From Patescibacteria group bacterium (GTDB taxonomy: Bacteria; Patescibacteriota; Patescibacteriia; UBA1558; GWA2-36-10): a stretch of DNA of 64,000 nt. Below, in pieces: positions 18,457 to 56,986 of the stretch (its first letter is position 1; every line of letters starts with the position of its first letter). The notes under the pieces were generated by a model. That model saw only the letters and a program-made list of their open reading frames with translations. It was not told the DNA's origin and made no database searches. The DNA lies in the NCBI GenBank assembly GCA_041665545.1, contig JBAYIQ010000001.1:222448-286447 (forward strand), read 5' to 3'. The position numbers and the translations under genes were made by a program.

Positions 18457-18740
18457 AGTTTACTCAGTTTCTAGAATCTAGCTTAATAGCACTGTTAACT
18501 AGTTGATTAAAAACTTGGTGGGTATTTTTAAAAACTCAGAACTTATCTGATTAACCCGCTGGTATTTTCATTAGCACCTCGTCCCCAGGGGCTTCTTAAA
18601 TAAGTAAAATAAACCCTGGCTCTTGTTGATATTAATAAACGGTTTGTTTTGAGCCATTGCTCTACCTTGAAGTTCCATGAGATTATCATACAGCCGTCTA
18701 TATGATTATAGCCGTCTATTTACACACTTTCATTATAGAC

Positions 18741-18768
18741 CAAACAAAAAAGCTGTCAAGAGACAGCT
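18741..18768 (-). terminator. Rho-independent terminator for the histidine kinase gene
   Basis: Stem agctgtc/gacagct (18751-18768) with a 4-nt loop. On the minus strand it is followed by tttttgtttg. Confidence 0.5.
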
Positions 18769-18794
18769 AAAAATCACTAAATTTTTTCTTTTAG

Positions 18795-21605
18795 CTAAGA
18801 CTGCATTTCTTCTTTATTCGGCTCACCGCCACTGACTGGTATCACAAACTGGAAAATACTCCCCTTTTCTTTGCCAGCACTCTCTACCCATATTTGACCA
18901 CCATGCTCTTTGATAATCTTCTGAGCGATGAATAAGCCCAAACCAGAACCACCAGTGTGAATCTGCGCCGCGCCACTAGCGCGCACAAATTTTCTAAATA
19001 AATTTTTGGCTTCCTCGGGGTCTATACCAATACCAGTATCTTGCACTTGGAAATGAAAATTTTCACCTTCAATAAAAGCGCTAACTTCAATCTGCCCTTT
19101 GGGCGTATATTTTATGGAATTATCAATCAAGTTCAAAATCACTTCGCGCAATTTATCAGAATCAGCGGCCACCAATGGCAAGGCCGGCTTTGATTTTTTG
19201 TAAATCAACTTCACGCCTTTTTTGTCTGACTCATTGTGTAGCTCGGCAATGACACTATCAATCATGTCGCTAATCTGCAAGGGCTTTTTTTCTATTTTTA
19301 ATCTTCCGGACTCAATGCGCGACACATTCAAAAATATATTGACCAAGCGAGCCAAGCGAGCGGCGCTTTCAAATAAATCTTTGATTACTTTGCCAACTTT
19401 TGGCGTTACCGGCCCAAAATCTCCATCAGAAATCATAGACAAGTAGCCCTTAAGCGCTGAAATTGGTGTGCGCAACTGGTGAGAAGCAATGGACAAAAAC
19501 TCTGATTTGGCTTGATCCAACTCGCGCAAGCGCATATTAGCAATTTGCAAATCTTGATTGGTTGTTTGTAAATTATTATATAAGCGCAAGTTTCTGGACA
19601 CAATGCCCACTTGGCTGGTCAGAGCCGTCATGGTGTCTAAATCCAGTGAAGTCACTTTTGATTTTTCTACAGCCAACAAAAAATGAATAATACCAATTAT
19701 TTTATCTTCCGAAAAAATTGGAAAGCCAACTATTGCTTTGACCCCCAAGGCCTCCTGCACTTTATCCATGACCAACTTATCAACTGGAGGTGAAAAGAAA
19801 TCCGACATTTTGTCAGAATCATTTCTTGTTCCGGATAATACTGTCTTGACGCCCAAAGAATAGCCCGCCTCTAATTTGGCTTCAAACTTTTTGGGATCCT
19901 GCCCCAAAATTTGCGTCACTAGTTTAGTCTGTTCACTCTCTGTGATTGCCCCAATACGTAAAACATTGGTTCGCTCATCCACAAAGCTCAAAACACCACC
20001 TACATAGCCAAACTCAGAATAAATACTGTTAGCAATCATTTGATTAATCTGCTTGAGGTCCATGGTGCGACCTACTTTATTGGTCACGGCCTGCATGGCT
20101 GTCAAAAACTTATTGCGTTGTTCTAGACCTACATTTGCTATTTTTAAACTTTTTGTCTTAGCATCAACCTTGACTTGCAAGTCACGCTTTTGTAACTGAA
20201 CTTCTTCGTAGAGTTTGGACTTCTCAATTGCTGTGGCAATTTGGGGAGTCAAAATTTTCAAAAAATTAATGTCGTCTTGACTGTAAAGATCGCCAGAGCT
20301 TTTTGCAGAAAAAAATAACATTGAAGTTAAACTCCCATCTTCTCCAGAAACGGGAACTATCATCTCTATTTTTAAATTTTCTGCCTCTTGAATAAAATTA
20401 CCTAAAATTTTATAATAAGGAACTTCTGAGCTTATATTACTATGGTCTCTTATTAATTCCTCAACGATAATAAGTTCCTTTTTATTTATGATAAATTGAA
20501 TAAAATTTATATTAAACTTTGGAGGGGCACTATCTAGTTGAGAGCTGGCTATTAATATCCATTCCCCATTTTTTAATATTAATGACGAAATTAATCTAAT
20601 TTTTAACTGATCAGACAACAAATTGACTAAAGCCAATGAAAATTTAGCCAAATCAATCTCTTTGGCAACTACCGAACTAGCTTTCTGAAGTAACTTCTGA
20701 TAATCTACCCTGTTCTTATAAAATATACGGTCGGTCAAACGAGCAAAAATACTCTTCAAGGGGTCAAGAGTCAAGACGATAACTAAAGAAGTTACAACAA
20801 AAATTATTGCATTGCCGGACTGGTTTTCTCTGCTCAAGTATGTTCCTGATAAAAAAACCACCATTGCAAAAAATGATGCAAACAAAGCTACCAAAATTCC
20901 GTATAAAACACTTCTAATCAAAACTAAACGAATGTCCATTAATCTGTACTTAACAATCGCATATGTGGTAAATCCTACCATGAAGATAGTTAAAACTTGC
21001 CCAGACCAATTAATTGTGAAAATGCCAAACCAAGGTAACAATAAATTAGATATAAAAGCTAAATTGCTGGATAGTAAATAACCAGAAAAAACATATTTTA
21101 CCTGCAATTTTTTTAACCCCTCAAGTTTTTTAATCTTACTATTAAGATTATAAAAAGCTTGAAAAAAGTGGTAGAAAAAATAAACTACATACAAAATATA
21201 CAACTTACCAAAATATATAATGTTTTCACCGTCAACAACTGTTTTAGCACTAAATATAATTCTATCCGTAAAAAGAATCATACCGTTTATAAGTATAAAA
21301 AAAACGGATACAAATATTATGTATTTCGGGTTAAGTTTCCCGCCCTCTGGAAAAACGATTGAAAAAAACAAAAAAGCTGGTGATGTAAACGTCGCAAACA
21401 CATACAATAGTTTGCATAAAAAAACTATATTAGCTTGATCAGAAAGTCTATACAATATCATCCCTGTACCCCAAAATATAATAGCTACAATAACAAATAA
21501 ATAACTTCTATTTACGGATGCATGTTTATTATTTTTATATATAAAATAACCTAATAATATATTAAGGATAAGTACAACTAAAATGATTATATTAATGTAA
21601 TCCAT
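18795..21605 (-). CDS. Sensor histidine kinase with N-terminal multi-TM (HisKA_7TM-like) domain, GAF-like region, HisKA and HATPase_c
   Basis: 936 aa. N-terminus is multi-pass. H-box EFLSIASHQLRTPISALKGY. C-terminal ATPase G-boxes (GIGIDPEE, GGSGLGLFIAQKI). Confidence 0.8.
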   Translation of the reverse strand: MDYINIIILVVLILNILLGYFIYKNNKHASVNRSYLFVIVAIIFWGTGMILYRLSDQANIVFLCKLLYVFATFTSPAFLFFSIVFPEGGKLNPKYIIFVSVFFILINGMILFTDRIIFSAKTVVDGENIIYFGKLYILYVVYFFYHFFQAFYNLNSKIKKLEGLKKLQVKYVFSGYLLSSNLAFISNLLLPWFGIFTINWSGQVLTIFMVGFTTYAIVKYRLMDIRLVLIRSVLYGILVALFASFFAMVVFLSGTYLSRENQSGNAIIFVVTSLVIVLTLDPLKSIFARLTDRIFYKNRVDYQKLLQKASSVVAKEIDLAKFSLALVNLLSDQLKIRLISSLILKNGEWILIASSQLDSAPPKFNINFIQFIINKKELIIVEELIRDHSNISSEVPYYKILGNFIQEAENLKIEMIVPVSGEDGSLTSMLFFSAKSSGDLYSQDDINFLKILTPQIATAIEKSKLYEEVQLQKRDLQVKVDAKTKSLKIANVGLEQRNKFLTAMQAVTNKVGRTMDLKQINQMIANSIYSEFGYVGGVLSFVDERTNVLRIGAITESEQTKLVTQILGQDPKKFEAKLEAGYSLGVKTVLSGTRNDSDKMSDFFSPPVDKLVMDKVQEALGVKAIVGFPIFSEDKIIGIIHFLLAVEKSKVTSLDLDTMTALTSQVGIVSRNLRLYNNLQTTNQDLQIANMRLRELDQAKSEFLSIASHQLRTPISALKGYLSMISDGDFGPVTPKVGKVIKDLFESAARLARLVNIFLNVSRIESGRLKIEKKPLQISDMIDSVIAELHNESDKKGVKLIYKKSKPALPLVAADSDKLREVILNLIDNSIKYTPKGQIEVSAFIEGENFHFQVQDTGIGIDPEEAKNLFRKFVRASGAAQIHTGGSGLGLFIAQKIIKEHGGQIWVESAGKEKGSIFQFVIPVSGGEPNKEEMQS

Positions 21606-21609
21606 TTGA

Positions 21610-22713
21610 CTAAGATAAAATATATTTTAAATAATCATCACTAATTGGTCTACCGAAAGATCTAAATCGTGCCGGTTCTATGCCAATGACATTCGCCATT
21701 TTTTTTATCCTAATAATTTGTTCCTTATTTGTATCGCCTATTGTGGTGCAATTACTATCTAATGCGGCAAGCGTTATTAATTCTCCCATACAGCTAAATA
21801 TATCCCCATCATCTGTTAACCCTAAATCAAAATTATATTTAATATTTTTATAATTACAAACACCACCCTCTATAACCAATGTCCGATGATTTTTAGAATT
21901 AATTTTTTTTGATGCATTTAGTGGTTGTGCATCATCTATAATAATTGTCCCCTCCTTCAACATGTTGCTAGATTGTATTATAGAGTAAGGTGCGTTTGTG
22001 GCTGTAATAATTATATCGGCTTTTTTTATAATATCTAATGAGCTACTATAACTTAAAATTTTTTCCGACGATAAATTAAATTTACTTTTTAATTTTTCCA
22101 TATCTTTGTCAACCAAAATAAACTTTTTAAAATGGTCAGTTAAGACTGCATAACATGAGGAGCCAATTGAACCCGCGGCCCCAACAATACCAATTGTTAA
22201 TTCTTTGCTAGTCAAATTTTTCATTCTTATTGCATTATTTGAAACCACCCATGCCGTGTAAGAATGTCCCGTTGTTAATCTACAATTAATTTTATCTTTA
22301 ATATCTAAACCATTTCTAGTAAATGACGCACTCAGTGCTCCTAAACCAATGATCTTGGCTCCTAATTTTTCAGCAAACTTTGCTGCTTTAAGAATTTTTT
22401 TTGTGGCCAACTCTCTATTTTTAGTCATGTCCGAAGCATCCATTGGTGACCCAATAAACAAGCCCCTCTTTTCAATATTACTATATTTAAGGCCGTATAT
22501 GTAACTCAGTCTTATTGGAAATAAATATTTACCTATAAAACTTAATATTTTGTATGGAACTCGATTATTAAGCAAGGAAAATTTCCTATTGAGATCGTGA
22601 TAATCCCTAGAATGCACAATGAAAACATAGTCTGCAGAAATATTTAACTTTTTAACCAATTTAATTGAGATATTCTTTGGCAAAAAATTTATAAAAAAAT
22701 CAATCAACAACAT
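21610..22713 (-). CDS. Putative NAD(P)-binding oxidoreductase; family not resolved
   Basis: 367 aa with Rossmann-type glycine motif IGIVGAAGSIGSS in the central region. Confidence 0.35.
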   Translation of the reverse strand: MLLIDFFINFLPKNISIKLVKKLNISADYVFIVHSRDYHDLNRKFSLLNNRVPYKILSFIGKYLFPIRLSYIYGLKYSNIEKRGLFIGSPMDASDMTKNRELATKKILKAAKFAEKLGAKIIGLGALSASFTRNGLDIKDKINCRLTTGHSYTAWVVSNNAIRMKNLTSKELTIGIVGAAGSIGSSCYAVLTDHFKKFILVDKDMEKLKSKFNLSSEKILSYSSSLDIIKKADIIITATNAPYSIIQSSNMLKEGTIIIDDAQPLNASKKINSKNHRTLVIEGGVCNYKNIKYNFDLGLTDDGDIFSCMGELITLAALDSNCTTIGDTNKEQIIRIKKMANVIGIEPARFRSFGRPISDDYLKYILS

Positions 22714-22740
22714 AATCTTATATTTAATAAAATGTATTCG

Positions 22741-23613
22741 TTAATAATATTTAGTAACCTTTGCAATATGTGGCATTTCGGATTTAAATTTATTCTTTTT
22801 GTGCATTTCTAATACAGCGTCAACGATAAATAAGTTTTTATTTTCATTATTTCTTAAAAAGCCAAAACTAGTAATATCTTGTATTTGCTTAGCACTATAG
22901 CCCTGATCTTTCGCCTCAATTATTATTTCTGCTTCTAAATAACTAAAACCCAATTCATCTTCGTCTGTTTGATTTTTCCAGAGACCAGCGGTTGGTGCCT
23001 TACTTATAATATTATCTGGCACATTCATAAATGAAGCAATTTCTCTAACGTGCCGCTTTGACAAATCGCCAATCGGACTTATGTCAACCTGTCCATCTCC
23101 CCTTTTAGTAAAATAGCCCAAAGCATAATCCTCGTCCTTATTACCTGTTCCCAATATTAAACTATCTAGAGCGGCAGCATATCTAGACAAAATAATTGCC
23201 CTAATTTCGCTTGCAACATTACCTTTATCATAATTATTCCTAACAATACCCTTCAATAAACCACAAAAAGATTCAATTATTGATGATATATCAATGACTT
23301 TATAATCAATGGCTAATGTTTTAGCAATATTAATGCCAATTTTAGTATCATTAATATTGTTAGTACTAGAAGGCATTATTAATCCACACAAAGACAATTC
23401 TTTTTTACCATTTTTATATTTATAATCATCAAATGCTGCTTTTGCTAAATAAGCCACTGTCGTAGAGTCAACTCCACCACTCAAACCAATAACCCCGCCC
23501 TTTTTATTAGCATTTTTTATTTCATCTACTATAAAATTCTGTATCTCCTGAGCAACAATTGCCGTTTTAATTTTGGGCAATTTAATTTTTTTTTCTATCT
23601 TTTCTAAATTCAT
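22741..23613 (-). CDS. nadE: NH3-dependent NAD+ synthetase
   Basis: 290 aa with PP-loop GLSGGVDSTT. Size fits single-domain NadE. Confidence 0.7.
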   Translation of the reverse strand: MNLEKIEKKIKLPKIKTAIVAQEIQNFIVDEIKNANKKGGVIGLSGGVDSTTVAYLAKAAFDDYKYKNGKKELSLCGLIMPSSTNNINDTKIGINIAKTLAIDYKVIDISSIIESFCGLLKGIVRNNYDKGNVASEIRAIILSRYAAALDSLILGTGNKDEDYALGYFTKRGDGQVDISPIGDLSKRHVREIASFMNVPDNIISKAPTAGLWKNQTDEDELGFSYLEAEIIIEAKDQGYSAKQIQDITSFGFLRNNENKNLFIVDAVLEMHKKNKFKSEMPHIAKVTKYY

Positions 23614-23640
23614 ACTATATACAAAAAATAACCAATTTAT

Positions 23641-25362
23641 TTATACAATATACTTATTTAAAATATTCTTTCTTCTCAACTTCAACGTAATAGTCAACAT
23701 TCCATTCTCCACACTAAATTCCTCAGCAATTAACTTAAAACTACTAATTTTTTCATTTTTTGACAGATCTTTTAACGATTCGTCAATGATCTGTGTATAA
23801 AGATTTTTCACAGCGCTCAGCTCCAATACTTCTGGTAATTTAAACTCTATATTTGCCTGTTCACACCACTTTTTTAATTCAGCCATATCTGGAACAATAA
23901 AAGCTGACAAAGCTTTTTGCTTGTCGCCATAAACCATGCTTTGGCTAATATATTTGCTGGCGTTTAAGTCATACTCTATTGGCTCAGGAAAAATATTTTT
24001 GCCAGTTGACAACACTATCACATCTTTGGCTCGACCAATGATGGTCAAAAATCCATCATTATCAAAAAAACCCAAATCTCCAGTGCGTAGCCAAGCATCG
24101 GCGTCAAAAGCTTCCTGGCTCAATATTTCATTGTCATAATAACCAGACATCACATTATCGCCTTTGAGCAATATTTCTTTTTCCGATGACAACTTAATTT
24201 GATTGCAAACCAAAGGCAAACCCACTGTGCCAAATTTATAATTATCCGGATGATTGACCGCCACTATTGGCGAGGCCTCGGTCAAGCCATAGCCCTCAAT
24301 CAGCTTCAAGCCCAAGCTATCAAAAAATTTGGCAATAGCTGGATTGAGCGAAGCTCCACCGGAGATAGCCAAGCGTAATTTACCACCCAAAATACTCCTT
24401 ATTTTCTTAAGTACCAAATAGTCTAAAATCTGATACTGCCATTTTTCTATAAAATTAAGCTGTCTTTTTTTCTTGGCATCAACCAAATTTAAGGTGCGAT
24501 AAAATAATTTTTTTTTAAAATTACTACCGCTCTTGATTTGATCAAAAACTTTGGCGTATATTTTTTCAAATATTCTAGGTACACAAGGCAAAACAGTGGG
24601 CTGAACCAACTTAATATCATCAATCATGGTCTTGGCGCTCACTGCGTAATAAATACTACAACCCGTAAAAAGCGGGCTATAATAGCCAGCCATTCTTTCA
24701 AAAGCATGTGACAAGGGCAAAAAGGAAAAAAATTTATCACTTTCGTAGATTGGTACATTGCGTCGGGCTGATTGAGCATCGCTGACTAAATTCTTCTGCG
24801 AAAGCATCACACCTTTGGGGTCACCCGTAGTCCCAGAGGTATAGATAATAGTATGCAAATCATCTTCCTGAGAAATAGCTTCAATATCAACTAATTTACT
24901 CTTATCAAAAACTGGCCAAGGCAATACTCTTTTATCCTCAATGTCTTGTGTCAGACCAACTACATATATTTCTTTGAGTGGTAAAGATAAGATGTTATTT
25001 TTATATTTGGCAAACAATTCTTGATTAATCAATAAATATTTAGCACCAGAATGATTAACTATGGTTTCCAAATATTTTTCTGGATAAGTATAGTGCACGG
25101 GCACTAAAACTAAACCCAAAGTAGCCACGGCCAGATCGGCCATGACCCACTCCGCACTATTGGGCAACATGACGGCTATTTTTTCACCCCTCACATAGCC
25201 CTTTTTTTGCCAATATTCGGCCAACTGACTGCGCAAATTGTTGAGCTCTTGATAACTAATTGTTTGATACTGACCTTGAACCAAAAAACCCAAAGCCGGA
25301 CGCAGACCAAAATCGCGAACTACTTCCAGAAAATTAGCAATGATTGTGCTGGACATAGGCAA
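23641..25362 (-). CDS. Long-chain fatty acid--CoA ligase (AMP-binding family)
   Basis: 573 aa with AMP-binding motif YTSGTTGDPKGV and C-terminal ligase core. Confidence 0.8.
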   Translation of the reverse strand: MPMSSTIIANFLEVVRDFGLRPALGFLVQGQYQTISYQELNNLRSQLAEYWQKKGYVRGEKIAVMLPNSAEWVMADLAVATLGLVLVPVHYTYPEKYLETIVNHSGAKYLLINQELFAKYKNNILSLPLKEIYVVGLTQDIEDKRVLPWPVFDKSKLVDIEAISQEDDLHTIIYTSGTTGDPKGVMLSQKNLVSDAQSARRNVPIYESDKFFSFLPLSHAFERMAGYYSPLFTGCSIYYAVSAKTMIDDIKLVQPTVLPCVPRIFEKIYAKVFDQIKSGSNFKKKLFYRTLNLVDAKKKRQLNFIEKWQYQILDYLVLKKIRSILGGKLRLAISGGASLNPAIAKFFDSLGLKLIEGYGLTEASPIVAVNHPDNYKFGTVGLPLVCNQIKLSSEKEILLKGDNVMSGYYDNEILSQEAFDADAWLRTGDLGFFDNDGFLTIIGRAKDVIVLSTGKNIFPEPIEYDLNASKYISQSMVYGDKQKALSAFIVPDMAELKKWCEQANIEFKLPEVLELSAVKNLYTQIIDESLKDLSKNEKISSFKLIAEEFSVENGMLTITLKLRRKNILNKYIV

Positions 25363-25466: not shown

Positions 25467-27137
25467 TCACTTACCCAAAGCTTGTACCTCTTGTTCTACC
25501 ACTTCATCATCTATTCTGGCAAACAATGGCTCAACTTTAGCAATCTTAATAGTTGGCAACAAAGCATACTGCCAGCCGGCTGTTTGGTTTCTCTCTTGAC
25601 CAAGCATTGTCAATATTTTATCAGTCGAATTTGGTATAAATGGATTAAGTAGGGTCGCTAGGTTATAAATTACTTGGCTAGCCACAAACAATGAGCGCTC
25701 TGCTGAAGCCCGATCAGTAGTTATCTGCTTCCAAGGTGAGGTCTCTTCTAAGTATCGATTGGCGCTTTCGGCTAGATTCAAAATAATTTTTATACTGTCT
25801 CTAAATTTTGCCTTAGCAATATTCTCTCCCACACTGCCAAAGGCCTGCTCAGTCAACTTCAATAAATCTTTGGCCGGCTTATCAAGCTTGATGTCTGATT
25901 CGTGTAAACCATCCGGACAATGCTTGTTGATAAAAGAAAAAACTCTATTAACCAAATTACCAAACTTGCCAATCAGTTCAGAGTTGACTTTGACCTGGTA
26001 CTCGGCCCAAGAAAAATCCGCGTCCGATGTCTCTGGACCGCTGATCACCAAATAATATCGAATGGTATCGGCCTCAAATTTGGACAAAAAGTCTGGCAAC
26101 CACACTGCCCAATGACGGCTCTTGGAAAATTGCTTGTTTTCTATGGTCAAAAATTCTGACGATATAATATAATCAGGTAAGTGCAAATCTCCATGGCCCA
26201 AAAGCATGGCTGGCCAAATCACGGCATGAAAAGGAATATTATCTTTACCATGGAAATAATAATGCTGAGCCGAATCATTCTGCCAAAAATCTTGCCATAA
26301 TTTAGCATCACCCCTGTTTTGGGCCCATTCACAACTGGCTGATAAATAGCCAATCACGGCCTCAAACCAAACATAAATCTTCTTGCCCTCGTAACCGGGC
26401 AAGGGTATGTCTATGCCCCAATTAGTATCGCGAGTAATTGCTCGATCATGCAAGCCCTCTTGCAAAAAATTTAAAGTAAAATTTTTGGCATTGGCTCGCC
26501 AACCCTGACTCTTGGCTACCCACTTTTCCAGTTGTTTTTGGAAAGCTGATAATTTTAAGAAAAAATGTTCAGATGGTTTCCAGACTGGTGTAGAACCGCA
26601 GGTTTTACAGCGTGGCTTAATCAACTGATTGGCATCAAGTAATGACCCGCAATTATCACACTGATCACCACGAGCGCCTTCAAAATGACACTTGGGACAC
26701 TCGCCCTCAACATAACGATCTGGTAAAAATCTTTGACATTTTTCACAAAAAGCCAGATCTTCAAATTTGGAATAAATATAACCTTTTTTTTGCAGATCCA
26801 AAAAAAATTCTTGCACTACTTGCTCGTGATTTTTGGTAGTGGTCTTGGTGTAGCAGTCAAAAGAAAAATTTAATTTGTTAAGAAAAATATCTTTGAATTC
26901 GGCGTGATATTTTTCAGCAATTGTCTCTGGCGCCACGTTTTGCTTATCAGCTTCCACGGCAATCGGCGTGCCATGGCAATCACTGCCCGAGACCATCAAG
27001 ACATCATGCCCAGCTAGACGGTGATAGCGCGCCACGATATCCCCGCCCAACAGTCCAGCTAGATGCCCCAAATGCAAAGAACCATTGGCATAGGGCCAAG
27101 CCAAACCAATAAAAATTTTATTTTTTTTCTTATTCAT
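25467..27137 (-). CDS. metG: Methionyl-tRNA synthetase
   Basis: 556 aa. HIGH-type motif PYANGSLHLGH, Zn-knuckle cysteines CPKCH...CDNCG and KMSKS-type KFSKS. Confidence 0.9.
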   Translation of the reverse strand: MNKKKNKIFIGLAWPYANGSLHLGHLAGLLGGDIVARYHRLAGHDVLMVSGSDCHGTPIAVEADKQNVAPETIAEKYHAEFKDIFLNKLNFSFDCYTKTTTKNHEQVVQEFFLDLQKKGYIYSKFEDLAFCEKCQRFLPDRYVEGECPKCHFEGARGDQCDNCGSLLDANQLIKPRCKTCGSTPVWKPSEHFFLKLSAFQKQLEKWVAKSQGWRANAKNFTLNFLQEGLHDRAITRDTNWGIDIPLPGYEGKKIYVWFEAVIGYLSASCEWAQNRGDAKLWQDFWQNDSAQHYYFHGKDNIPFHAVIWPAMLLGHGDLHLPDYIISSEFLTIENKQFSKSRHWAVWLPDFLSKFEADTIRYYLVISGPETSDADFSWAEYQVKVNSELIGKFGNLVNRVFSFINKHCPDGLHESDIKLDKPAKDLLKLTEQAFGSVGENIAKAKFRDSIKIILNLAESANRYLEETSPWKQITTDRASAERSLFVASQVIYNLATLLNPFIPNSTDKILTMLGQERNQTAGWQYALLPTIKIAKVEPLFARIDDEVVEQEVQALGK

Positions 27138-31670: not shown

Positions 31671-33056
31671 TTATTTTTCTTCCTTATTAGCCATGGCCTG
31701 CTGATAAAGCAACAAACTGCCAATGGCAATATCCAAATATTTGTTCACTTCCTTCAAAAAATCCAGTTGCTGTTGGTAAATCAGCTTTTTATTGTTATCC
31801 AGCATGACTACTCCCAAAAGCTGATTATTATAGTATATTGGGAAAGATATGTCAATATGATGATTAACCAGCTCTTGGCTCAGCTGGGGATCAAGCCCCA
31901 AGTAGTGCACTTCTGGACTATGAAGTAAATCTTGATTTTTAGCCAAATATTTTAAAAGCAAATCCTGCTCCATGTGCAGTGTGCGCTCGCCCACTGGAAA
32001 TACTTGGTGGAAAAAATTAGCATCCCCACGCTTGGACAAATAAATAAATATTTCTTTGTAATCAATCACTTGGGCAATTTCTTTGGACAGTGATGACATC
32101 AATCTATTGAGATCACGACTAGAGCGCAAGATCACGGCAATATTATTTTGCGCTTGAATTATTCTCTCCAAAGGATGATAAATAAAAAACTTAGCCGCCA
32201 CACTGGCTAGACCAAATAAAATAGGTGCGGTCAAACCAAAAAATATCAAAAACAAAATACTATTTATGCTGCGAGAAAAATCCACCTGTACTGGCCCGCT
32301 GAGTACTAAATACAGCAAAGCATAAACCAAGCCAGTCAAAAGCAAGCGCACCAAGTTGACCAAGGTTTTGTAAAAACTTATTTTCAAATCCAAAAAGCGG
32401 TAGCGAAACAAAGCATACACCACAATAGCGGTAAATATCACGCTACTATTAACTCCCAGATAATAAAACTCCACCACTCCCAAAAGTGGTAAGAAAAAAA
32501 TAAAAATCAAAGCCGAGATAGCGGTCAAAGCCGTGGCCACAAAAATATAGTCAATTTGCTTTTTGACTATCTGATCATAGCGACTGCGCTGACGAATCAA
32601 CACTACCAGGCCCCAAGACATGAGGGTGAGAAAATAGGCCGCAAAATAAAAATAAATCGGCCCTGGTACATAAGCGACACTGTTTTGGCCGACGACAATA
32701 CTGCTGACATTATATTTGCTAAAAACAAAGGGCGACATGATATAAGCGGGCAAGAAAAAAAGATGCTGTTTGCTGCGAACTTTTTTCCAACCATCAACCA
32801 GTAAGTAGCTAAGCCAGACAAAGACCGGGGCAATATACAGTGTTGGCAATAAACCAGCGCGCACTCCCAGTAGCAAGGATTGACTGCGTAATAAAAATAA
32901 AATATTAAACAGTTCACTGCTCTGCCATAGCCACAACAAAAAAACCATGATGAAAATTGGCCAGCGCCTTTGCTTATTTTTGTTGAGGAGTATAAAAAAC
33001 AACAAGCCCAGATTGATCAGCCAAACTACTGCTAAAATTAAAGTATCTAGTGTCAT
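31671..33056 (-). CDS. 7TM sensor-like membrane domain fused to a C-terminal GAF-like cytoplasmic domain; no kinase domain
   Basis: 461 aa. Multi-TM N-terminus related to the three tandem paralogs, with a roughly 160 aa soluble C-terminus. Confidence 0.55.
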   Translation of the reverse strand: MTLDTLILAVVWLINLGLLFFILLNKNKQRRWPIFIMVFLLWLWQSSELFNILFLLRSQSLLLGVRAGLLPTLYIAPVFVWLSYLLVDGWKKVRSKQHLFFLPAYIMSPFVFSKYNVSSIVVGQNSVAYVPGPIYFYFAAYFLTLMSWGLVVLIRQRSRYDQIVKKQIDYIFVATALTAISALIFIFFLPLLGVVEFYYLGVNSSVIFTAIVVYALFRYRFLDLKISFYKTLVNLVRLLLTGLVYALLYLVLSGPVQVDFSRSINSILFLIFFGLTAPILFGLASVAAKFFIYHPLERIIQAQNNIAVILRSSRDLNRLMSSLSKEIAQVIDYKEIFIYLSKRGDANFFHQVFPVGERTLHMEQDLLLKYLAKNQDLLHSPEVHYLGLDPQLSQELVNHHIDISFPIYYNNQLLGVVMLDNNKKLIYQQQLDFLKEVNKYLDIAIGSLLLYQQAMANKEEK

Positions 33057-33621: not shown

Positions 33622-34659
33622 CTAATTATCAATATTTTTCAAAATTTCAAAAAATCTTTGATTGTGTTCGGGTAAGCCAATAGAAACTCGCATCATATTG
33701 TCCGCCAAAAATAAAGCAATAGTAAAATCTTCTTTAGCTATCAATTCTTTTAATTGGTCTATTATTTTTTCATTTACTTTTACCAAAACAAAATTGGTTT
33801 GGGAATCAAAAATTTTAAAATTGTTCAAAGTCCGCACCTGCCCTATCAGCCAATCTCTATCTTTGATAATTTTTTGAGCTGTTTCTTCATAATAACTAGC
33901 TGAATCCAAGGCCGCCAAAGCTACTTTTTCCAAAATAGTGCTAAAACCCAAATAGCGATGCTGGTAAGCTATTAGATCTTTGGCCTGTTCGCCCACCAGA
34001 GCATAACCAATGCGTAAGCCAGCCAAAGCATAATATTTAGAAAATGTTCTGACTATTAATAAATTAGGATATTTTTTCAAAATCTCAATATATTTAGCTG
34101 CTTTATAATTTTTATCATAACCATAATAGGCCTCATCTAATATCAACAAGGTGTCTTTGGTAATATTGGCTAGTACTTTTTCTAAATCCTGAAAAGCCAA
34201 AACATTGCCAGTGGGATTGTTGGGTGATGTCAGTATTAATATTTTGGGCTGATGTTTTTGGTATAGCTTCAGGCAATCATCAATATCAAAAGAAAAATCG
34301 GTGTTATTTTCAATCATTCTAAATTCCACAAATTTTATACCCAAAAAATCCGCGTATTTTTTGAAATAAGCAAAATGCCATTGATTGACCAAAATGGTAT
34401 CTTGCTTGGGATCAAGTTGTAAAAACAAATTTCTAAAAAAATCTTCCAAGCCGTAAAAAATAATAACCTGTTTTTCAGGCAGATTGAATTGCAAAGATAT
34501 TTTTTGAGCTAAAGGAGAATTATAATAGCCCTCTTGGTAATGAATAATGTTGGCCACTGGAAAATTTCTAATGACTGCCAAAACTTCAGGCGCTGGCCCG
34601 TATAAATTTTCGTTGCGATTGATTATCAGTTGCGACATGGTTTGATTAAAACTGGACAT
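33622..34659 (-). CDS. Class I/II aminotransferase (histidinol-phosphate aminotransferase-like)
   Basis: 345 aa with PLP-fold motifs SPNNPTG and TFSKYYALAGLRIGYA (Lys for PLP). Overlaps cysS by 14 nt. Confidence 0.65.
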   Translation of the reverse strand: MSSFNQTMSQLIINRNENLYGPAPEVLAVIRNFPVANIIHYQEGYYNSPLAQKISLQFNLPEKQVIIFYGLEDFFRNLFLQLDPKQDTILVNQWHFAYFKKYADFLGIKFVEFRMIENNTDFSFDIDDCLKLYQKHQPKILILTSPNNPTGNVLAFQDLEKVLANITKDTLLILDEAYYGYDKNYKAAKYIEILKKYPNLLIVRTFSKYYALAGLRIGYALVGEQAKDLIAYQHRYLGFSTILEKVALAALDSASYYEETAQKIIKDRDWLIGQVRTLNNFKIFDSQTNFVLVKVNEKIIDQLKELIAKEDFTIALFLADNMMRVSIGLPEHNQRFFEILKNIDN

Positions 34660-36028
34660 TTATAGCTTGTTGCCCAGCGTTTGTATCCTCTACTTCTACC
34701 CCCTGCTCTTTCAACTGCTCACGCAAATCATCAGCCAGTTTATAATTTTTACTTTGTCTAGCTATTTCTCGCTTTTTTAGCAAATCTTGAGCATTTTTTG
34801 GTATTTGTAAGGCCCTGCTTCGTAAATTTTTTAAATCCAAACCCAGCACTTCATCCATTTTGTAAACTGTGGCCAATTTCATGCTCCCATCTTCTTTGCT
34901 GGCCAAGAGCTGTTGTAAGACCGCCATGGCCTTGGAAGTATTTAAATCATCACTCAAAGCCAAATAAAAATCCGCTAAATATTTTTCATTTATTTTACCC
35001 GACTTATTTAAAGTCGCCAGACTTTTTACAATATTATGTAAACCGGTTTGCCCGGCGGTCAGTGATCCCCAAGAAAAATTCAAAGGCGTGCGATAATGAT
35101 TTTGCAAAAGTAAGTATCTATAAGCCAGTGGTGATATTTTTTTCTTTTCCAAATCAGTGACCGTGGTGATATTGCCCAAAGACTTGGACATTTTTTGATT
35201 ATCAAATTTCATAAAAGCATTGTGCAGCCAATAATTGGCCTGCAACTTGCCAGTGACGGCTTCTGATTGGGCCATTTCATTGGGGTGATGCACAGTCAGA
35301 TGATCCATGCCACCAGTGTGAATATCAAAAGTATCGCCCAAGGTCAGGCGGCTCATCACTGAACACTCCAAATGCCAACCCGGAAAACCCTTGCCCCAGG
35401 GTGAGTCCCATTCCATATCGCGTTGTGAATTTTTTGGTGAAAATTTCCAAACTGCAAAATCGCTCAAATGTTTTTTTTCGTCATTTTTTTCCACGCGCGC
35501 ACCTTCTTGCAAATCAACATTTTGTAAATTACCCAAAATTCCGTAATCTTTTATTTTGGAAGTATCAAAATATAAACCATCGGAAGTTTTATACAAAAAA
35601 CCTTTTTTATCTAAAATTTTTACAAACTCTATTTGCTCCTTGATAGTTTTGGTTGCTCGCAAAGTTTTTGTTGGCGCTATTATATTTAATTTTTTAGCAT
35701 CAGTCACAAAAACATTGGTATAATAATCGGCGATTTCCCAAGCGCTTTTACCTTCCCGCTTCTTGGCTTTTTCCATCTTATCCTCACCGCTATCAGCATC
35801 TGAGGTCAAATGCCCGACATCGGTGATGTTCATGACGTGCTTGACCTTATACTTTTGCGAATTCAAAAAACGCTTCAAAATATCCCAATATATATAGGGC
35901 ACAAAATTACCAATATGTGGGTAATCATAAACAGTCGGACCACAAGTATACAAACCGACCTGGCCCTTTTTTATGGCCTTAAACTCCTCTTTTTTGCGAG
36001 TTAAGCTGTTGTAAAAATTTATAGACAT
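34646..36028 (-). CDS. cysS: Cysteinyl-tRNA synthetase
   Basis: 460 aa with YTCGPTVYDYPHIGN (HIGH) and KMSKSLGN. Confidence 0.9.
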   Translation of the reverse strand: MSINFYNSLTRKKEEFKAIKKGQVGLYTCGPTVYDYPHIGNFVPYIYWDILKRFLNSQKYKVKHVMNITDVGHLTSDADSGEDKMEKAKKREGKSAWEIADYYTNVFVTDAKKLNIIAPTKTLRATKTIKEQIEFVKILDKKGFLYKTSDGLYFDTSKIKDYGILGNLQNVDLQEGARVEKNDEKKHLSDFAVWKFSPKNSQRDMEWDSPWGKGFPGWHLECSVMSRLTLGDTFDIHTGGMDHLTVHHPNEMAQSEAVTGKLQANYWLHNAFMKFDNQKMSKSLGNITTVTDLEKKKISPLAYRYLLLQNHYRTPLNFSWGSLTAGQTGLHNIVKSLATLNKSGKINEKYLADFYLALSDDLNTSKAMAVLQQLLASKEDGSMKLATVYKMDEVLGLDLKNLRSRALQIPKNAQDLLKKREIARQSKNYKLADDLREQLKEQGVEVEDTNAGQQAINVQF

Positions 36029-41773: not shown

Positions 41774-41884
41774 CGTCATCCCGCACTCCCGCCCGACACG
41801 CCTGACGGCAGTCATGGCGGGCGGGTGTTGCGGGATCTAACTAGAAATATATAAATACTAGATTCCCGCCTGCGCGGGAATGAC
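41774..41884 (-). repeat. MITE-like inverted-repeat element, copy 1 (reverse orientation, with a GC-rich insertion)
   Basis: Its reverse complement matches copies 2 and 3: gtcattcc(c/t)gcgcaggc(g/a)ggaatcta ... agatc(c/t)cgcaa ... tgcgggatgacg. Copy 1 carries an extra nested GC hairpin, cccgcccg...cgggcggg. Confidence 0.7.
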
Positions 41885-52549: not shown

Positions 52550-52622
52550 GTCATTCCTGCGCAGGCAGGAATCTAATTTTTTGTACATGTTAGCTAGATC
52601 TCGCAATAAATGCGGGATGACG
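52550..52622 (+). repeat. MITE-like inverted-repeat element, copy 2
   Basis: gtcattcctgcgcaggcaggaatcta...agatctcgcaataaatgcgggatgacg, with terminal inverted repeats GTCATTCC/GGGATGAC and two internal hairpins. Confidence 0.7.
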
Positions 52623-54021: not shown

Positions 54022-54783
54022 TTACTCCCGAAAGGCCGGCACCGCCCACTCGTCGCACTGACTGCCAAGGTGAAAGGTGCGCAGCCAGAACTGACGCATA
54101 TCAGCATCCCAGCCGAAACACGGCACGAACTGCCAGTCTAGAAAGATGGGGGCGCAGGCCTCGTAACCAGGCAAGAAGACATAGGGAATATCCTTGCCGT
54201 TCATGGCCGACACCCACTTCGGACTGTAGTAAGCCATCCAGAGAATGGCCGCGGCCGGAGACTGGACAGAGTCGCGCACGTCCACGGACTTGCGGTTCTG
54301 GTTGGCACCCAGATCCACGATGCGCCACTTGAGACCTCGGCTGTGCTGACCCGAAAGCAGACGCAAGTGCTCGGAATCGGACAGAAGCCCACCCAAGCGA
54401 CTACTATTCGGCTGCTTGCTGGCGGCCAGCTGCCAGGCCGTATCGAAAGTCCGTTGAACGGTGTCCAAACAGACCTCCAGTATGACGACCGTCAGACGCG
54501 TGGTGTTGGCAGGCACAGGAGCCTGACCGAGCTTGATGAAATCCTCGTCGGTGAAGCCCCAGCAGTGCTGGACGTTAAGCACCTTGACCATGGAAAGCTG
54601 CTGAGCCGGGGTGGCGAACATGCCGTGGATGAGGTCGCACTCGAAGCCGCGACCCTCGACGATGCACTGCAGTTGATCGATGGTTGTGTTGAAGAGAATC
54701 GTGCCCTGATTGGCACGCCGCTTCACCTCGTCCAGTCTCCTGTCTAGTACTCTGTACTGCTCGTCGGACAATACGCTCGTCAT
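54022..54783 (-). CDS. Hypothetical protein in a GC-rich islet
   Basis: 253 aa from ATG 54783 (MTSVLSDEQYRVLDRRLDEVKRR...) with AAGGAGGG 6 nt upstream. Local GC is far above background. Terminator hairpin ggctcggaa/ttccgagcc at 53953-53994. Confidence 0.5.
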   Translation of the reverse strand: MTSVLSDEQYRVLDRRLDEVKRRANQGTILFNTTIDQLQCIVEGRGFECDLIHGMFATPAQQLSMVKVLNVQHCWGFTDEDFIKLGQAPVPANTTRLTVVILEVCLDTVQRTFDTAWQLAASKQPNSSRLGGLLSDSEHLRLLSGQHSRGLKWRIVDLGANQNRKSVDVRDSVQSPAAAILWMAYYSPKWVSAMNGKDIPYVFLPGYEACAPIFLDWQFVPCFGWDADMRQFWLRTFHLGSQCDEWAVPAFRE

Positions 54784-54903
54784 GACAAGCCCTCCTTTTG
54801 ATATTTTGCTGTTTTTTAGTATTTGGCTTATCCAAAACACCAAAAAACAACGGTTGTGAAAGAACAATATAATATATAACTTTTTAATAATTTTGTCAAT
54901 ATC

Positions 54904-54932
54904 TTACAAAATAAAATAATATGCTGTATAAT
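54904..54932 (+). promoter_or_regulatory. Sigma70-type promoter for the thrS leader
   Basis: TTACAA, 17-nt spacer, TATAAT. Confidence 0.5.
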
Positions 54933-54938
54933 TATTTT

Positions 54939-55108
54939 TGCTTTAGACGATTGGAATAGCTACCAACTATCCCCCCTACTAGGGTGCCTGCAAGGCCTAA
55001 GTCTAAACCTAATTGAGTGTCCTCTTTTTTGGGGAAACTTGGGTGGAACCACCCCTCGACTCGCTACGCTCGCTCGGGGTCCCAAGACAATCTGTCTTGG
55101 GTTATTTT
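54939..55108 (+). promoter_or_regulatory. T-box riboswitch-like leader with Thr (ACC) specifier upstream of thrS
   Basis: T-box-like sequence AACUUGGGUGGAACCACCCC at 55036-55055 (compare consensus AAUUAGGGUGGNACCGCG). A 7-nt UGGAACC bulge is flanked by helices CUUGGG/CCCAAG and ACCCC/GGGGU, matching antiterminator architecture. The competing terminator cccaagaca-atc-tgtcttggg plus ttatttt lies at 55081-55108. A candidate specifier gcuACCaac is at 54959-54967. Confidence 0.5.
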
Positions 55109-55119
55109 AATTCTTTAAT

Positions 55120-55191
55120 GTCATTCCTGCGAAGGCAGGAATCTAGAATATAAAATTATAAACTAGATCCCGCAACAAGTGCGGGATGACG
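55120..55191 (+). repeat. MITE-like inverted-repeat element, copy 3
   Basis: gtcattcctgcgaaggcaggaatcta...agatcccgcaacaagtgcgggatgacg. Inserted between the T-box terminator and the thrS start. Confidence 0.7.
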
Positions 55192-55228
55192 GCAAATAAA
55201 AAACTTAAATAAATTATAGCAAAAAAAT

Positions 55229-56977
55229 ATGAAAAACTTAGAAGAAATTCGACACTCGCTGTCGCACATCATGGCTATGGCTGTTCTCAAAAAGTTTCCT
55301 GATGCCAAGCTTGGTATTGGACCAACCATTGACAATGGCTTTTATTATGATTTTTTGCTGAGCGAAAAATTATCTGACACTGATTTACCAGAAATAGAAA
55401 AAACCATGCAAGAGCTGATCAAGCAAAACATTGAATTCAAAAAAACTATTGTTACTCGCGAAGAAGCTTTACAGAAAGTAAAAACTCTAAAACAAAATTT
55501 CAAAGAAGAGTTGATAAATGATTTACCAAAAGAAGAAGACATTATTTTTTATCAATCCGGTAATTTTGAAGATCTGTGCGCTGGACCACATATCAAAAAT
55601 TCCAAAGAAATTCCCCTTGATGGCTTCAAGCTCACACACTTGGCTGGCGCTTATTGGCGCGGTGATGAAAAAAATCCCATGATGACCAGAATTTATGGTT
55701 TGGCTTTTACTAATAGAAAAGATCTGGCCGTGCATTTAAATATGCTGGAACAAGCCAAGCTTCGCGATCACAGGAAACTAGGAAAAGAACTTGACTTATT
55801 TGTCTTTTCTGAAATTGTTGGACGTGGCTTACCCCTATTCACTCCCAAGGGCACTGCCATCTGGCAAGAAATGGAAAGATTGGTAATTGAAGAAGAAAAT
55901 AAACGTGGATACTCACGCACCCACACTCCGGATTTGGCTAAAGTTGATCTCTATAAATTATCCGGTCATTGGGATCACTATCAAGACTCTATGTATCCGG
56001 CAATTGATGTTGATGGTGAAGAATATGTTTTGCGACCCATGACTTGCCCGCATCAATTCATGATCTACAAAGCCAAGCCGCGCAGTTACCGTGAATTGCC
56101 CTTGCGATACGCGGAAATTGCCAAACTTTATCGCAAAGAACAATCTGGCGAACTGGCCGGCTTAATGCGCGTCATGTCTTTTTCCTTGGCTGACGCACAT
56201 ATCATCTGTCGACCAGACCAACTAGAGATAGAATTTGAAGCAGTAGTTGAGCTTGTTCAGAGTATTATGAAAACTCTGGGTATTAACAATTATTCTTATC
56301 GTTTTTCTAAATGGGATCCGCAAAATAAAGAAAAATATATTGATAATCCAACGGCTTGGCACGATTCACAAAGCTCCATGAAAAAAATATTGGATAAAAT
56401 GAAGCTTAAATATACAGAAGGTGATGGCGAAGCAGCTTTTTATGGCCCAAAGCTTGATGTTCAAATGCGTAATGTCAACGGCAAAGAAGACACCGCCTTT
56501 ACTGTACAAATTGACTTTGCTTTGCCGGAAAAATTTGACATGACTTATATTGATGTAGACGGCCAAGAGAAAAGACCAATGGTAATTCATCGCTCCTCTA
56601 TCGGCTGTATGGAACGCACCATGGCCTTCTTGATAGAACAATATGCTGGCAATTTCCCGGTCTGGCTATCACCAGTACAAATAAAAATACTAACCGTCGC
56701 CTCTACCCATACTGACTTTGCCAAAAAACTGCAAACCGAATTTTTAGCCGAAGGCATCCGTGTCGAGCTTGACGACTTGGACGAAACAGTCGGCAACAAA
56801 ATCCGCAAAGCGTCTCATGAAAAAGTCCCTTACACATTGGTGATTGGTGACAAAGAAATGGGATCAGACAATTTAGCGGTCCGTGTGCGCGGACAAAAAG
56901 ATTTGCTCAACATCGACAAACAAAAATTCATCGACAAAATAAAAACCCAAATTAAGAATCGTGACCTAAGCTTATAA
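55229..56977 (+). CDS. thrS: Threonyl-tRNA synthetase
   Basis: 582 aa class II aaRS with Zn-binding catalytic core (CRPM...HQFMIYKAK) and C-terminal anticodon-binding domain. Confidence 0.9.
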   Translation: MKNLEEIRHSLSHIMAMAVLKKFPDAKLGIGPTIDNGFYYDFLLSEKLSDTDLPEIEKTMQELIKQNIEFKKTIVTREEALQKVKTLKQNFKEELINDLPKEEDIIFYQSGNFEDLCAGPHIKNSKEIPLDGFKLTHLAGAYWRGDEKNPMMTRIYGLAFTNRKDLAVHLNMLEQAKLRDHRKLGKELDLFVFSEIVGRGLPLFTPKGTAIWQEMERLVIEEENKRGYSRTHTPDLAKVDLYKLSGHWDHYQDSMYPAIDVDGEEYVLRPMTCPHQFMIYKAKPRSYRELPLRYAEIAKLYRKEQSGELAGLMRVMSFSLADAHIICRPDQLEIEFEAVVELVQSIMKTLGINNYSYRFSKWDPQNKEKYIDNPTAWHDSQSSMKKILDKMKLKYTEGDGEAAFYGPKLDVQMRNVNGKEDTAFTVQIDFALPEKFDMTYIDVDGQEKRPMVIHRSSIGCMERTMAFLIEQYAGNFPVWLSPVQIKILTVASTHTDFAKKLQTEFLAEGIRVELDDLDETVGNKIRKASHEKVPYTLVIGDKEMGSDNLAVRVRGQKDLLNIDKQKFIDKIKTQIKNRDLSL

Positions 56978-56986
56978 AGAAAAAAT

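Follow-up and report, generated by a model that had tools for sequence, protein, structure and literature searches.

A probable tRNA-Thr-sensing T-box leader with an unusual decoding half upstream of thrS in Patescibacteria

The thrS leader and its elements

The 64,000-nucleotide (nt) stretch of DNA analyzed here (the window) comes from the 295-kb metagenome contig JBAYIQ010000001.1 (positions 222,448 to 286,447, forward strand) of the Patescibacteria group bacterium assembly GCA_041665545.1, and carries on its plus strand the gene thrS, named by NCBI as “threonine--tRNA ligase [Patescibacteria group bacterium]”. An intergenic region (54787-55228) separates thrS from an open reading frame (ORF) on the minus strand (54022-54786), and encodes the RNA leader that is the subject of this study. 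From its sequence and its recurrence in relatives, we consider it very probable that this leader is a T-box that senses tRNA-Thr and controls thrS by transcription attenuation, as an earlier note made from the sequence alone had proposed. Its elements, in order along the plus strand, are as follows (MFE, minimum free energy; relatives carry L numbers).

54904-54932, plus strand: sigma-70-type promoter, TTACAA, 17-nt spacer, TATAAT (sequence and promoter scan; same promoter conserved in L001).
54942-54948, plus strand: 5′ strand of helix P1, UUUAGAC, pairing with 55001-55007 (MFE fold and inverted repeat).
54949-54953, plus strand: junction strand J1/2, GAUUG, family consensus R-A-U-U-G (leaders found via ThrS).
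54954-54972, plus strand: P2 specifier hairpin, stem GAAUAG/CUAUCC, loop CUACCAA at 54960-54966, with ACC at 54962-54964 followed by A (covariation).
54974-54984, plus strand: P3, variable hairpin CCCU-ACU-AGGG (MFE fold).
54986-54996, plus strand: P4, variable hairpin GCCU-GCA-AGGC (MFE fold).
54997-55000, plus strand: junction strand J4/1, CUAA (leaders found via ThrS).
55001-55007, plus strand: 3′ strand of P1, GUCUAAA (MFE fold and covariation).
55008-55019, plus strand: single-stranded, purine-rich linker whose 3′ end, GAGUG, is the RRRNG motif (motif before Stem III).
55020-55035, plus strand: Stem III, UCCUC-UUUUUU-GGGGA, followed by AA at 55036-55037 (folds and Rfam alignment with high posterior probability).
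55038-55086, plus strand: T-box core and antiterminator, with helix A1 CUUGGG/CCCAAG, helix A2 ACCCC/GGGGU carrying a 20-nt loop, and UGGA at 55044-55047 (Rfam alignment and covariation).
55081-55109, plus strand: intrinsic terminator, 9-bp perfect stem, 3-nt loop and tail UUAUUUUA (terminator scan and inverted repeat).
55229-56977, plus strand: thrS, 582 amino acids (translation; Pfam domains tRNA_SAD, tRNA-synt_2b and HGTP_anticodon).

Every element listed in the earlier note was present where it had been placed, to single-base precision. The promoter that it described is there in the sequence (TTACAA at 54904-54909, a 17-nt spacer and TATAAT at 54927-54932), and a promoter scan returned the same −10 box in a neighboring register (CTTACA-18). 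The T-box sequence AACUUGGGUGGAACCACCCC was found at 55036-55055, and its bulge UGGAACC (55044-55050) is flanked, as had been claimed, by CUUGGG/CCCAAG (55038-55043 with 55081-55086) and ACCCC/GGGGU (55051-55055 with 55076-55080). Terminator and inverted-repeat scans recovered the perfect terminator stem CCCAAGACA/UGUCUUGGG (55081-55089 with 55093-55101) followed by its U-rich tail, and the specifier candidate gcuACCaac lies at 54959-54967, upstream of thrS. Leader-peptide attenuation was considered and rejected: the sole ORF in the leader (55013-55153, TTG start) has as its ACC ACC codons the universal T-box core.

When the 64-kb window was searched against 4,227 Rfam families, the T-box model RF00230 was the sole match besides one tRNA. 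The covariance-model check suggested in the earlier note gave a significant E-value (E = 0.0011; E = 7.9 × 10−6 in a local search of the leader) at a score of 33.4 bits, which lies well under the curated gathering cut-off of 93. Posterior probability was high where Stem III, the T-box sequence and the antiterminator were aligned; over Stem I the alignment, in which model positions 1-219 were forced, was stretched back over the promoter with low posterior probability and non-pairs. The score is low because only the 3′ half of the leader aligns. Six Patescibacteria-type thrS leaders scored 30-42 bits with the same model, and canonical Firmicutes thrS T-boxes, included as a control, scored 94-108 bits, with 5 of 13 passing the cut-off. 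Together with the recurrence of the leader and the compensatory base changes described below, this lone Rfam match constitutes a T-box signal that exceeds chance.

Relatives of the leader in Patescibacteria

Relatives were gathered by two routes. In the first (the ThrS route), one genome per species was scanned with the ThrS protein of the window, a procedure that is unbiased with respect to leader RNA. The ThrS relatives were at most 66% identical to the window protein, the nearest being Patescibacteria metagenome-assembled genomes (some of them mislabelled), and identity to Firmicutes ThrS was ∼50%. Six ThrS-route relatives shared the leader plan of the window (L001, L002, L004, L006, L007 and L045), two others had variant leaders in which ACC still lies in a terminal loop (L005 and the Saccharibacteria locus L073), and four had no leader before thrS (L003, L008, L079 and L080). 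In the second route, a metagenome collection was searched with the DNA pattern ATTG-N6-CYACCAA-N22-48-CTAAR-N36-66-GTGGAAYC, yielding at least 120 stretches. Pattern matches and ThrS-route leaders together make up a family of at least 120 distinct leader cores, and all family counts given here are counts among the matches listed. All family leaders lie on Patescibacteria-type contigs, and thrS follows on the same strand in 108 of the 120 distinct leaders, at a median distance of 155 nt. Where thrS was not seen downstream, five leaders had no downstream DNA, six had only 0.5-1.1 kb, and one (L176) had 7.5 kb and no thrS.

Individual relatives show variations on this plan. In L005 (2755-2925), from another Patescibacteria metagenome-assembled genome, the thrS leader presents ACC in a terminal loop of 9 nt (CUUAACCAC), carried by a stem in two parts. 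A small hairpin with GUUAG-UUUU after it might fold into a pseudoknot like the IIA/B pseudoknot of other T-boxes, and the 3′ strand of the terminator pairs with the 5′ strand of Stem III instead of the 3′ strand of the antiterminator. The Saccharibacteria thrS leader L073 (2815-2985) has the hairpin CGG-CUACCAA-CCG and the bulge ACGGAAU(C) in place of UGGNACC, and therefore the usual pairing with the terminal A of the tRNA would be lost. In L004 (2100-3000) another ORF (start at ∼2349) intervenes between the terminator of the leader and thrS, such that the switch heads a two-gene unit. The loop atop antiterminator helix A2 of the window is a 20-nt insert, UCGACUCGCUACGCUCGCUC (55056-55075), that is nearly unchanged in L002 (2784-2803), and the otherwise very similar leader of L001 has a 7-nt loop at this place.

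A canonical discriminator half

The discriminator half of the leader is canonical for a class I T-box. Across 117 distinct sequences of the antiterminator region (alignment A2), helix A1 was paired in 91% and helix A2 in 88%, and 10 of 11 pairs were changed on both sides among the matches listed. The covariation score of the antiterminator was 0.575, compared with 0.11-0.22 when pairing partners were slid by 1-3 columns, and none of 500 shuffles reached 0.575. The predicted Stem III was immediately preceded by RRRNG in 83 of 111 relatives and followed by AA in 94 of 111, matching the RRRNG-Stem III-AA motif named as conserved in T-boxes (PMC7778990). With a fold-based finder, 108 of 118 relatives proved to have a terminator made of a single hairpin and a U tail (71 of 118 with a stricter simple finder), and the terminator overlaps the 3′ strand of the antiterminator in 72 of the 84 relatives that allowed this strand to be positioned. 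In the window, the terminator hairpin (−12.5 kcal/mol) includes the 3′ strand of helix A1 in its 5′ strand, and the terminator with its U tail lies 120 nt upstream of the thrS start codon. Predicted MFE was −35.7 kcal/mol for the terminator state versus −20.3 kcal/mol for the antiterminator state; since the terminator state is the more stable, the default would be off.

A divergent decoding half

The decoding half of the leader consists of a closing helix and a junction and presents the codon in an apical loop of 7 nt; it is no mere truncation of a canonical Stem I. The suggestion in the earlier note that Stem I may be reduced was thus correct as to the reduction but understated it, in that a different module replaces the canonical Stem I. 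In an alignment of 119 decoding modules (alignment A1), 97.5% of cells in the P2 stem were paired, with compensatory changes at 6 of 6 pairs among the matches listed; slid pairings were only 31-42% paired, and no shuffle out of 500 reached the observed score. RNAalifold predicted P2 independently from the same alignment and did not return the long-range helix P1, which rests on pair counts. The apical loop of P2 is 7 nt long and reads C-Y-ACC-A-A, letters that the search pattern fixes; the same codon and A occur in the ThrS-route leaders.

Helix P1 is formed by the tail after CUAA pairing with the 5′ end. Its three junction-proximal pairs were paired in 97, 89 and 77% of the alignment, and all of them covary. 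P1 is extended by an innermost Y-R pair, left free by the pattern, which was C:G in 47 leaders, U:A in 37, U.G in 29 and C.A in 1 (Fisher P = 1.7 × 10−10). RAUUG and CUAA form the strands of the junction that separates P1 from the hairpins; AUUG and CUAA were present in 7 of 7 same-type leaders found via ThrS alone, and the base before AUUG, free in the pattern, was G in 100 of 119 sequences and A in 16. The junction letters GAU opposite UAA may be akin to the UAA/GAN internal-loop motif. The segment that separates P2 from CUAA (median 28 nt) has no conserved sequence, holds one hairpin in 53 cases and two in 65, and folds with a median z of −2.4 relative to shuffles; P3 and P4 are backed by folding statistics and not by aligned covariation. 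From P1 to P1′ the whole module measures 66 nt. A covariance model of it (R1) matched the window leader and further Patescibacteria-type leaders, and had no match in ∼50 Firmicutes and other thrS loci or elsewhere in the window.

The position of the promoter predicts the 5′ end of this module. A −10 box (at least 5 of 6 bases matched) was found within 60 nt upstream in 98 of 116 leaders, compared with 28 of 103 control windows, and peaked 12-20 nt before AUUG. The transcript would therefore start at P1, leaving no room upstream for a long Stem I. No long Stem I, internal Specifier Loop with S-turn, or AG bulge/distal elbow platform was found in the leader. The S-turn signature AGUA plus GAA occurred in 1 of 119 family members among the matches listed, P3 and P4 being short plain hairpins, and no loop-to-tail complementarity of the pseudoknot kind was seen in the window or in L045, a family-wide pseudoknot search not having been made; a functional equivalent may exist. 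A kink-turn (K-turn) at the base of P2 was rejected by inspection: G-A and A-A adjoin P1, but there is no 3-nt bulge with tandem G.A pairs.

An ordinary class I T-box whose Stem I has drifted in sequence while keeping the usual K-turn, internal Specifier Loop and distal platform could in principle look divergent in an Rfam search, as Rfam forces a full-length alignment over model positions 1-219 and some of the canonical Firmicutes thrS T-boxes also fell just under 93 (5 of 13 passed). We give this explanation a very slim chance, given that the Stem I alignment enters the promoter with low posterior probability and non-pairs, that the −10 box lies 12-20 nt before AUUG throughout the family and the P1-P1′ module spans just 66 nt, that the covarying pairs put ACC at the tip of a 6-bp stem, in an apical loop of 7 nt, and that the S-turn signature is found in a single member of the alignment. 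A similarly slim chance is assigned to the leader being a decaying or constitutive relic that retains only a fixed terminator or has no action at all. Patescibacteria genomes are reduced and some close relatives have no thrS leader (the four loci named above), as a relic would allow; at least 120 distinct versions are nonetheless maintained with compensatory changes in four helices and with unpaired functional letters kept, and a constitutive strong terminator ahead of an essential gene would be harmful.

Threonine specificity and the cognate tRNA

The earlier note's claim of a threonine-specific T-box acting as a transcription attenuator of thrS is backed by the canonical discriminator half, by the covariation of the antiterminator helices and the specifier hairpin, and by a leader that almost always precedes thrS. 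To these can be added the specifier itself: ACC-A lies at 54962-54965 in the window, and ACC plus a purine was found, along with the UGGA bulge, in 9 of 9 thrS T-box leaders of the Candidate Phyla Radiation (CPR) found via ThrS (window, L001, L002, L004, L005, L006, L007, L045 and L073). The bulge read UGGA in 45 of 45 recovered thrS T-box cores, mostly from Firmicutes. In a census of 160,271 bacterial tRNA-Thr, A73 was found in 131,288 and U73 in 28,854 (18%), and U73 was otherwise common only in tRNA-Gly and tRNA-Cys (PMC6097841). UGGA and ACC in combination therefore point to a U73 tRNA-Thr(GGU), and we predict from the leader sequence that the host tRNA-Thr has the anticodon GGU and the discriminator base U73. 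Of the threonine codons in 11 window genes, 75% are ACU or ACC, which a GGU anticodon reads, and therefore the switch would monitor the main tRNA-Thr isoacceptor.

It is conceivable that the T-box core and terminator work as such while the 5′ module binds a protein or a small ligand, or merely aids folding, specificity then coming from the 3′ end contact alone. The invariant RAUUG/CUAA letters and two variable hairpins with no assigned role would suit a module of this kind, as would the lack of recognizable elbow or Stem II type contacts. It would leave the loop of P2 unexplained, given that a threonine codon followed by A is kept there in 9 of 9 ThrS-route CPR leaders ahead of thrS and that the loop has the layout of an anticodon loop; moreover, UGGA alone cannot tell tRNA-Thr from U73-bearing tRNA-Gly and tRNA-Cys. 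We therefore regard this explanation as highly improbable.

Still less probable, to the point of being barely credible, is an operator of the Escherichia coli thrS type, in which threonyl-tRNA synthetase (ThrRS) binds a mimic of the tRNA-Thr anticodon arm and represses its own gene. A hairpin with an anticodon-loop-like 7-nt loop does stand ahead of thrS, and the E. coli thrS operator is an established case of tRNA mimicry (PMC9976931). However, the loop shows the codon ACC and not a threonine anticodon (NGU), which is what ThrRS recognizes; the hairpin lies ∼270 nt before the start codon and not beside the ribosome-binding site, and a complete T-box discriminator and terminator follow downstream of it.

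Proposed mechanism and points against it

Under a T-box mechanism, transcription would start a few bases before P1, and the first ∼70 nt would fold into a compact decoding module in which P1 closes a junction carrying P2, P3 and P4. The loop of P2, laid out like an anticodon loop (pyrimidine, U, three bases, A, A), would offer ACC to the GGU anticodon in a loop-loop contact. A linker ending in GAGUG would then lead to Stem III, AA and the antiterminator, where UGGA would pair with the free U73-C-C-A end of uncharged tRNA-Thr. Uncharged tRNA held at both sites would stabilize the antiterminator (∼−20 kcal/mol alone) and RNA polymerase would read through, while with charged tRNA, or with none, the more stable terminator state (∼−36 kcal/mol) would form and transcription would stop at 55102-55109. 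We infer the tRNA binding, the geometry of the loop-loop contact and the lack of an elbow contact from the architecture of the leader, and P3, P4 and the junction may have some role.

If this mechanism is right, the leader may represent a third T-box decoding architecture, in which an anticodon-stem-loop mimic held in a helix-closed junction relies solely on loop-loop pairing to capture tRNA-Thr, dispenses with the elbow platform, K-turn, S-turn Stem II and pseudoknot, and nonetheless drives a transcription-termination switch that is kinetically demanding; it would be widespread in Patescibacteria and dedicated to thrS in the DNA seen. We consider this broader proposal evenly balanced between being right and being wrong.

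Several points weigh against the T-box reading. The RF00230 score falls far short of the gathering cut-off, and at Rfam thresholds the window holds one tRNA only. The MFE of the whole leader is ordinary for its composition (z = −1.1), and P2 of the window has one A.C mismatch. The search pattern fixes AUUG, the 6-nt stem length, CYACCAA, CUAAR and GUGGAAYC, such that conservation of these cannot be judged from the pattern set, and the leaders free of bias for the pattern-fixed letters are only the seven of the same type from the ThrS route, or nine if the L005 and L073 variants are counted. No tRNA-Thr gene was found in the window (ARAGORN detected tRNA-Ser only), in 6.7 kb beyond its right end, a stretch ending ∼2.4 kb before the end of the contig, or in ∼200 fetched loci; EF-Tu, L11, L1, L7/L12 and NusG, near which tRNA-Thr is often located, had no tblastn match in the DNA searched. 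Lastly, a review of T-boxes states that transcriptional members generally cannot capture tRNA fast enough unless a long Stem I supplies an elbow platform (PMC7583486). As the leader has no such platform, either this rule fails here or something unrecognized compensates.

Comparison with known T-boxes and related systems

The leader shares with class I T-boxes (RF00230; Bacillus/Firmicutes thrS, tyrS and glyQS) the order RRRNG-Stem III-AA, the 7-nt UGGNACC bulge, the two-helix antiterminator and the overlapping terminator, as well as a specifier codon that corresponds to the regulated synthetase and has a purine after it; its UGGA is that of every Firmicutes thrS T-box recovered. Unlike class I T-boxes, it has no long Stem I, basal K-turn, internal Specifier Loop with S-turn or AG bulge/distal elbow platform, and no recognizable Stem II S-turn or IIA/B pseudoknot, the codon lying instead in an apical loop inside a helix-closed junction.

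The closest parallel to this arrangement is found in Actinobacteria. The ultrashort-Stem-I ileS T-boxes of Mycobacterium smegmatis, M. tuberculosis and Nocardia farcinica are described as translational regulators that respond to tRNA-Ile and sequester the Shine-Dalgarno sequence, and they require a K-turn, a IIA/B pseudoknot and a long Stem II that bears an S-turn purine string (bioRxiv 10.1101/2023.02.28.530422; PMC7583486). Both groups lack the elbow platform, and in both the place of the long Stem I is taken by a short helix whose terminal loop carries the Specifier Sequence. The Patescibacteria leader differs in its gene (thrS) and codon (ACC), in its read-out through an intrinsic terminator and in its closing helix P1, and neither an S-turn nor a pseudoknot is recognizable in it. 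A terminal-loop specifier appears to be known so far only from these translational Actinobacteria T-boxes, and the transcriptional, thrS-specific variant in Patescibacteria looks new. A full-text search returned no paper linking T-boxes to Patescibacteria or CPR; subscription journals are largely outside its coverage and an earlier description is possible.

The E. coli thrS operator regulates the same gene and likewise has an anticodon-arm-like hairpin in its leader. Its loop mimics an anticodon and binds a protein, whereas the Patescibacteria loop carries a codon, would be expected to bind a tRNA, and has a T-box core and terminator downstream. Another comparison for the proposed contact is the pairing of two tRNAs. 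In complexes of two tRNAs with complementary anticodons, loop-loop pairing is far more stable than free trinucleotide duplexes. Here, too, two 7-nt loops of anticodon layout would pair through three bases, which could explain how a bare hairpin binds an anticodon; the difference is that one of the partners is a predicted mRNA-leader loop embedded in a junction.

T-boxes serve as the model of RNA recognizing RNA. Under the current rule, the transcriptional ones have to hold the tRNA elbow with a long Stem I in order to catch the tRNA before RNA polymerase arrives at the terminator, and only the slow-acting translational ileS T-boxes of Actinobacteria, with their S-turn Stem II and pseudoknot, can manage otherwise (PMC7583486). 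A transcription-terminating family with no platform, S-turn Stem II or pseudoknot, and with its codon in an anticodon-like loop, would directly counter this rule. At ∼66 nt the decoding module is a compact object for structural and kinetic work and, if the proposal is true, the smallest natural T-box decoding module. The leaders lie ∼60 bits under the Rfam cut-off, and therefore Patescibacteria would look T-box-free in standard annotation. A 2024 perspective describes regulation in Patescibacteria as virtually unknown and calls for riboswitch-based expression tools (PMC11665869); the leader, if correctly interpreted, would be a native tRNA-responsive switch in this lineage of virtually unknown gene regulation.

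Genomic context

Downstream of the leader, thrS, guaB (IMPDH), a miaB-like radical S-adenosylmethionine (radical-SAM) gene and miaA are packed at 55229-60751 on the plus strand, separated by a 9-nt gap, a 4-nt overlap and a 91-nt gap. Given this tight packing, the T-box terminator may gate a purine gene and two tRNA-modification genes along with thrS, and guaB, the miaB-like gene and miaA are probably under the thrS switch as well. Among the three synthetase genes of the window, only thrS has the putative T-box control: metG and cysS (25467-27137 and 34646-36028, both on the minus strand) are preceded by just 38 and 75 nt, which contain nothing resembling a T-box. Nor were further T-box cores with a U run found besides thrS leaders in ∼1 Mb of Patescibacteria-type DNA, a sample biased to thrS neighborhoods.

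The spacer between the terminator and thrS contains a copy of a palindrome, GTCATTCCYGCG-N4-CRGGAAT, resembling repetitive extragenic palindromic (REP) sequences or miniature inverted-repeat transposable elements (MITEs), of which the window has three intergenic copies (41862-41884 on the minus strand, and 52550-52572 and 55120-55189 on the plus strand), where chance predicts 0. Downstream of the thrS terminator, the copy belongs to a larger nested palindrome of 70 nt, and a weak Rfam match to FtrB (55084-55217) is this same repeat. Related copies occur in the same spacer in L002 (2878-2950) and, in the leader of L006 (2765-2830), within the loop of Stem III. On the other side of the promoter, the ORF that is divergent from thrS (54022-54786) has 53% G+C in a genome of ∼38% and no Pfam match or recorded Pfam family, is preceded by a near-consensus promoter (TTGACA-17-TATATT, 54871-54899 on the minus strand), and may be a recent acquisition.

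Elsewhere in the window, a single stop-free frame of at least 2,606 codons (1-7820, minus strand) runs off the left end, forming a giant gene. A cluster at 16627-25362 (minus strand) encodes two enzymes of the AMP-binding type, of which one also has a carrier-protein domain. Two paralogous sensor proteins (18795-21605 and 31671-33056, minus strand) have an N-terminal seven-transmembrane region of the histidine-kinase type and GAF domains, with kinase domains in the first only. For a reduced genome, this AMP-binding/sensor cluster is unexpected regulatory content.

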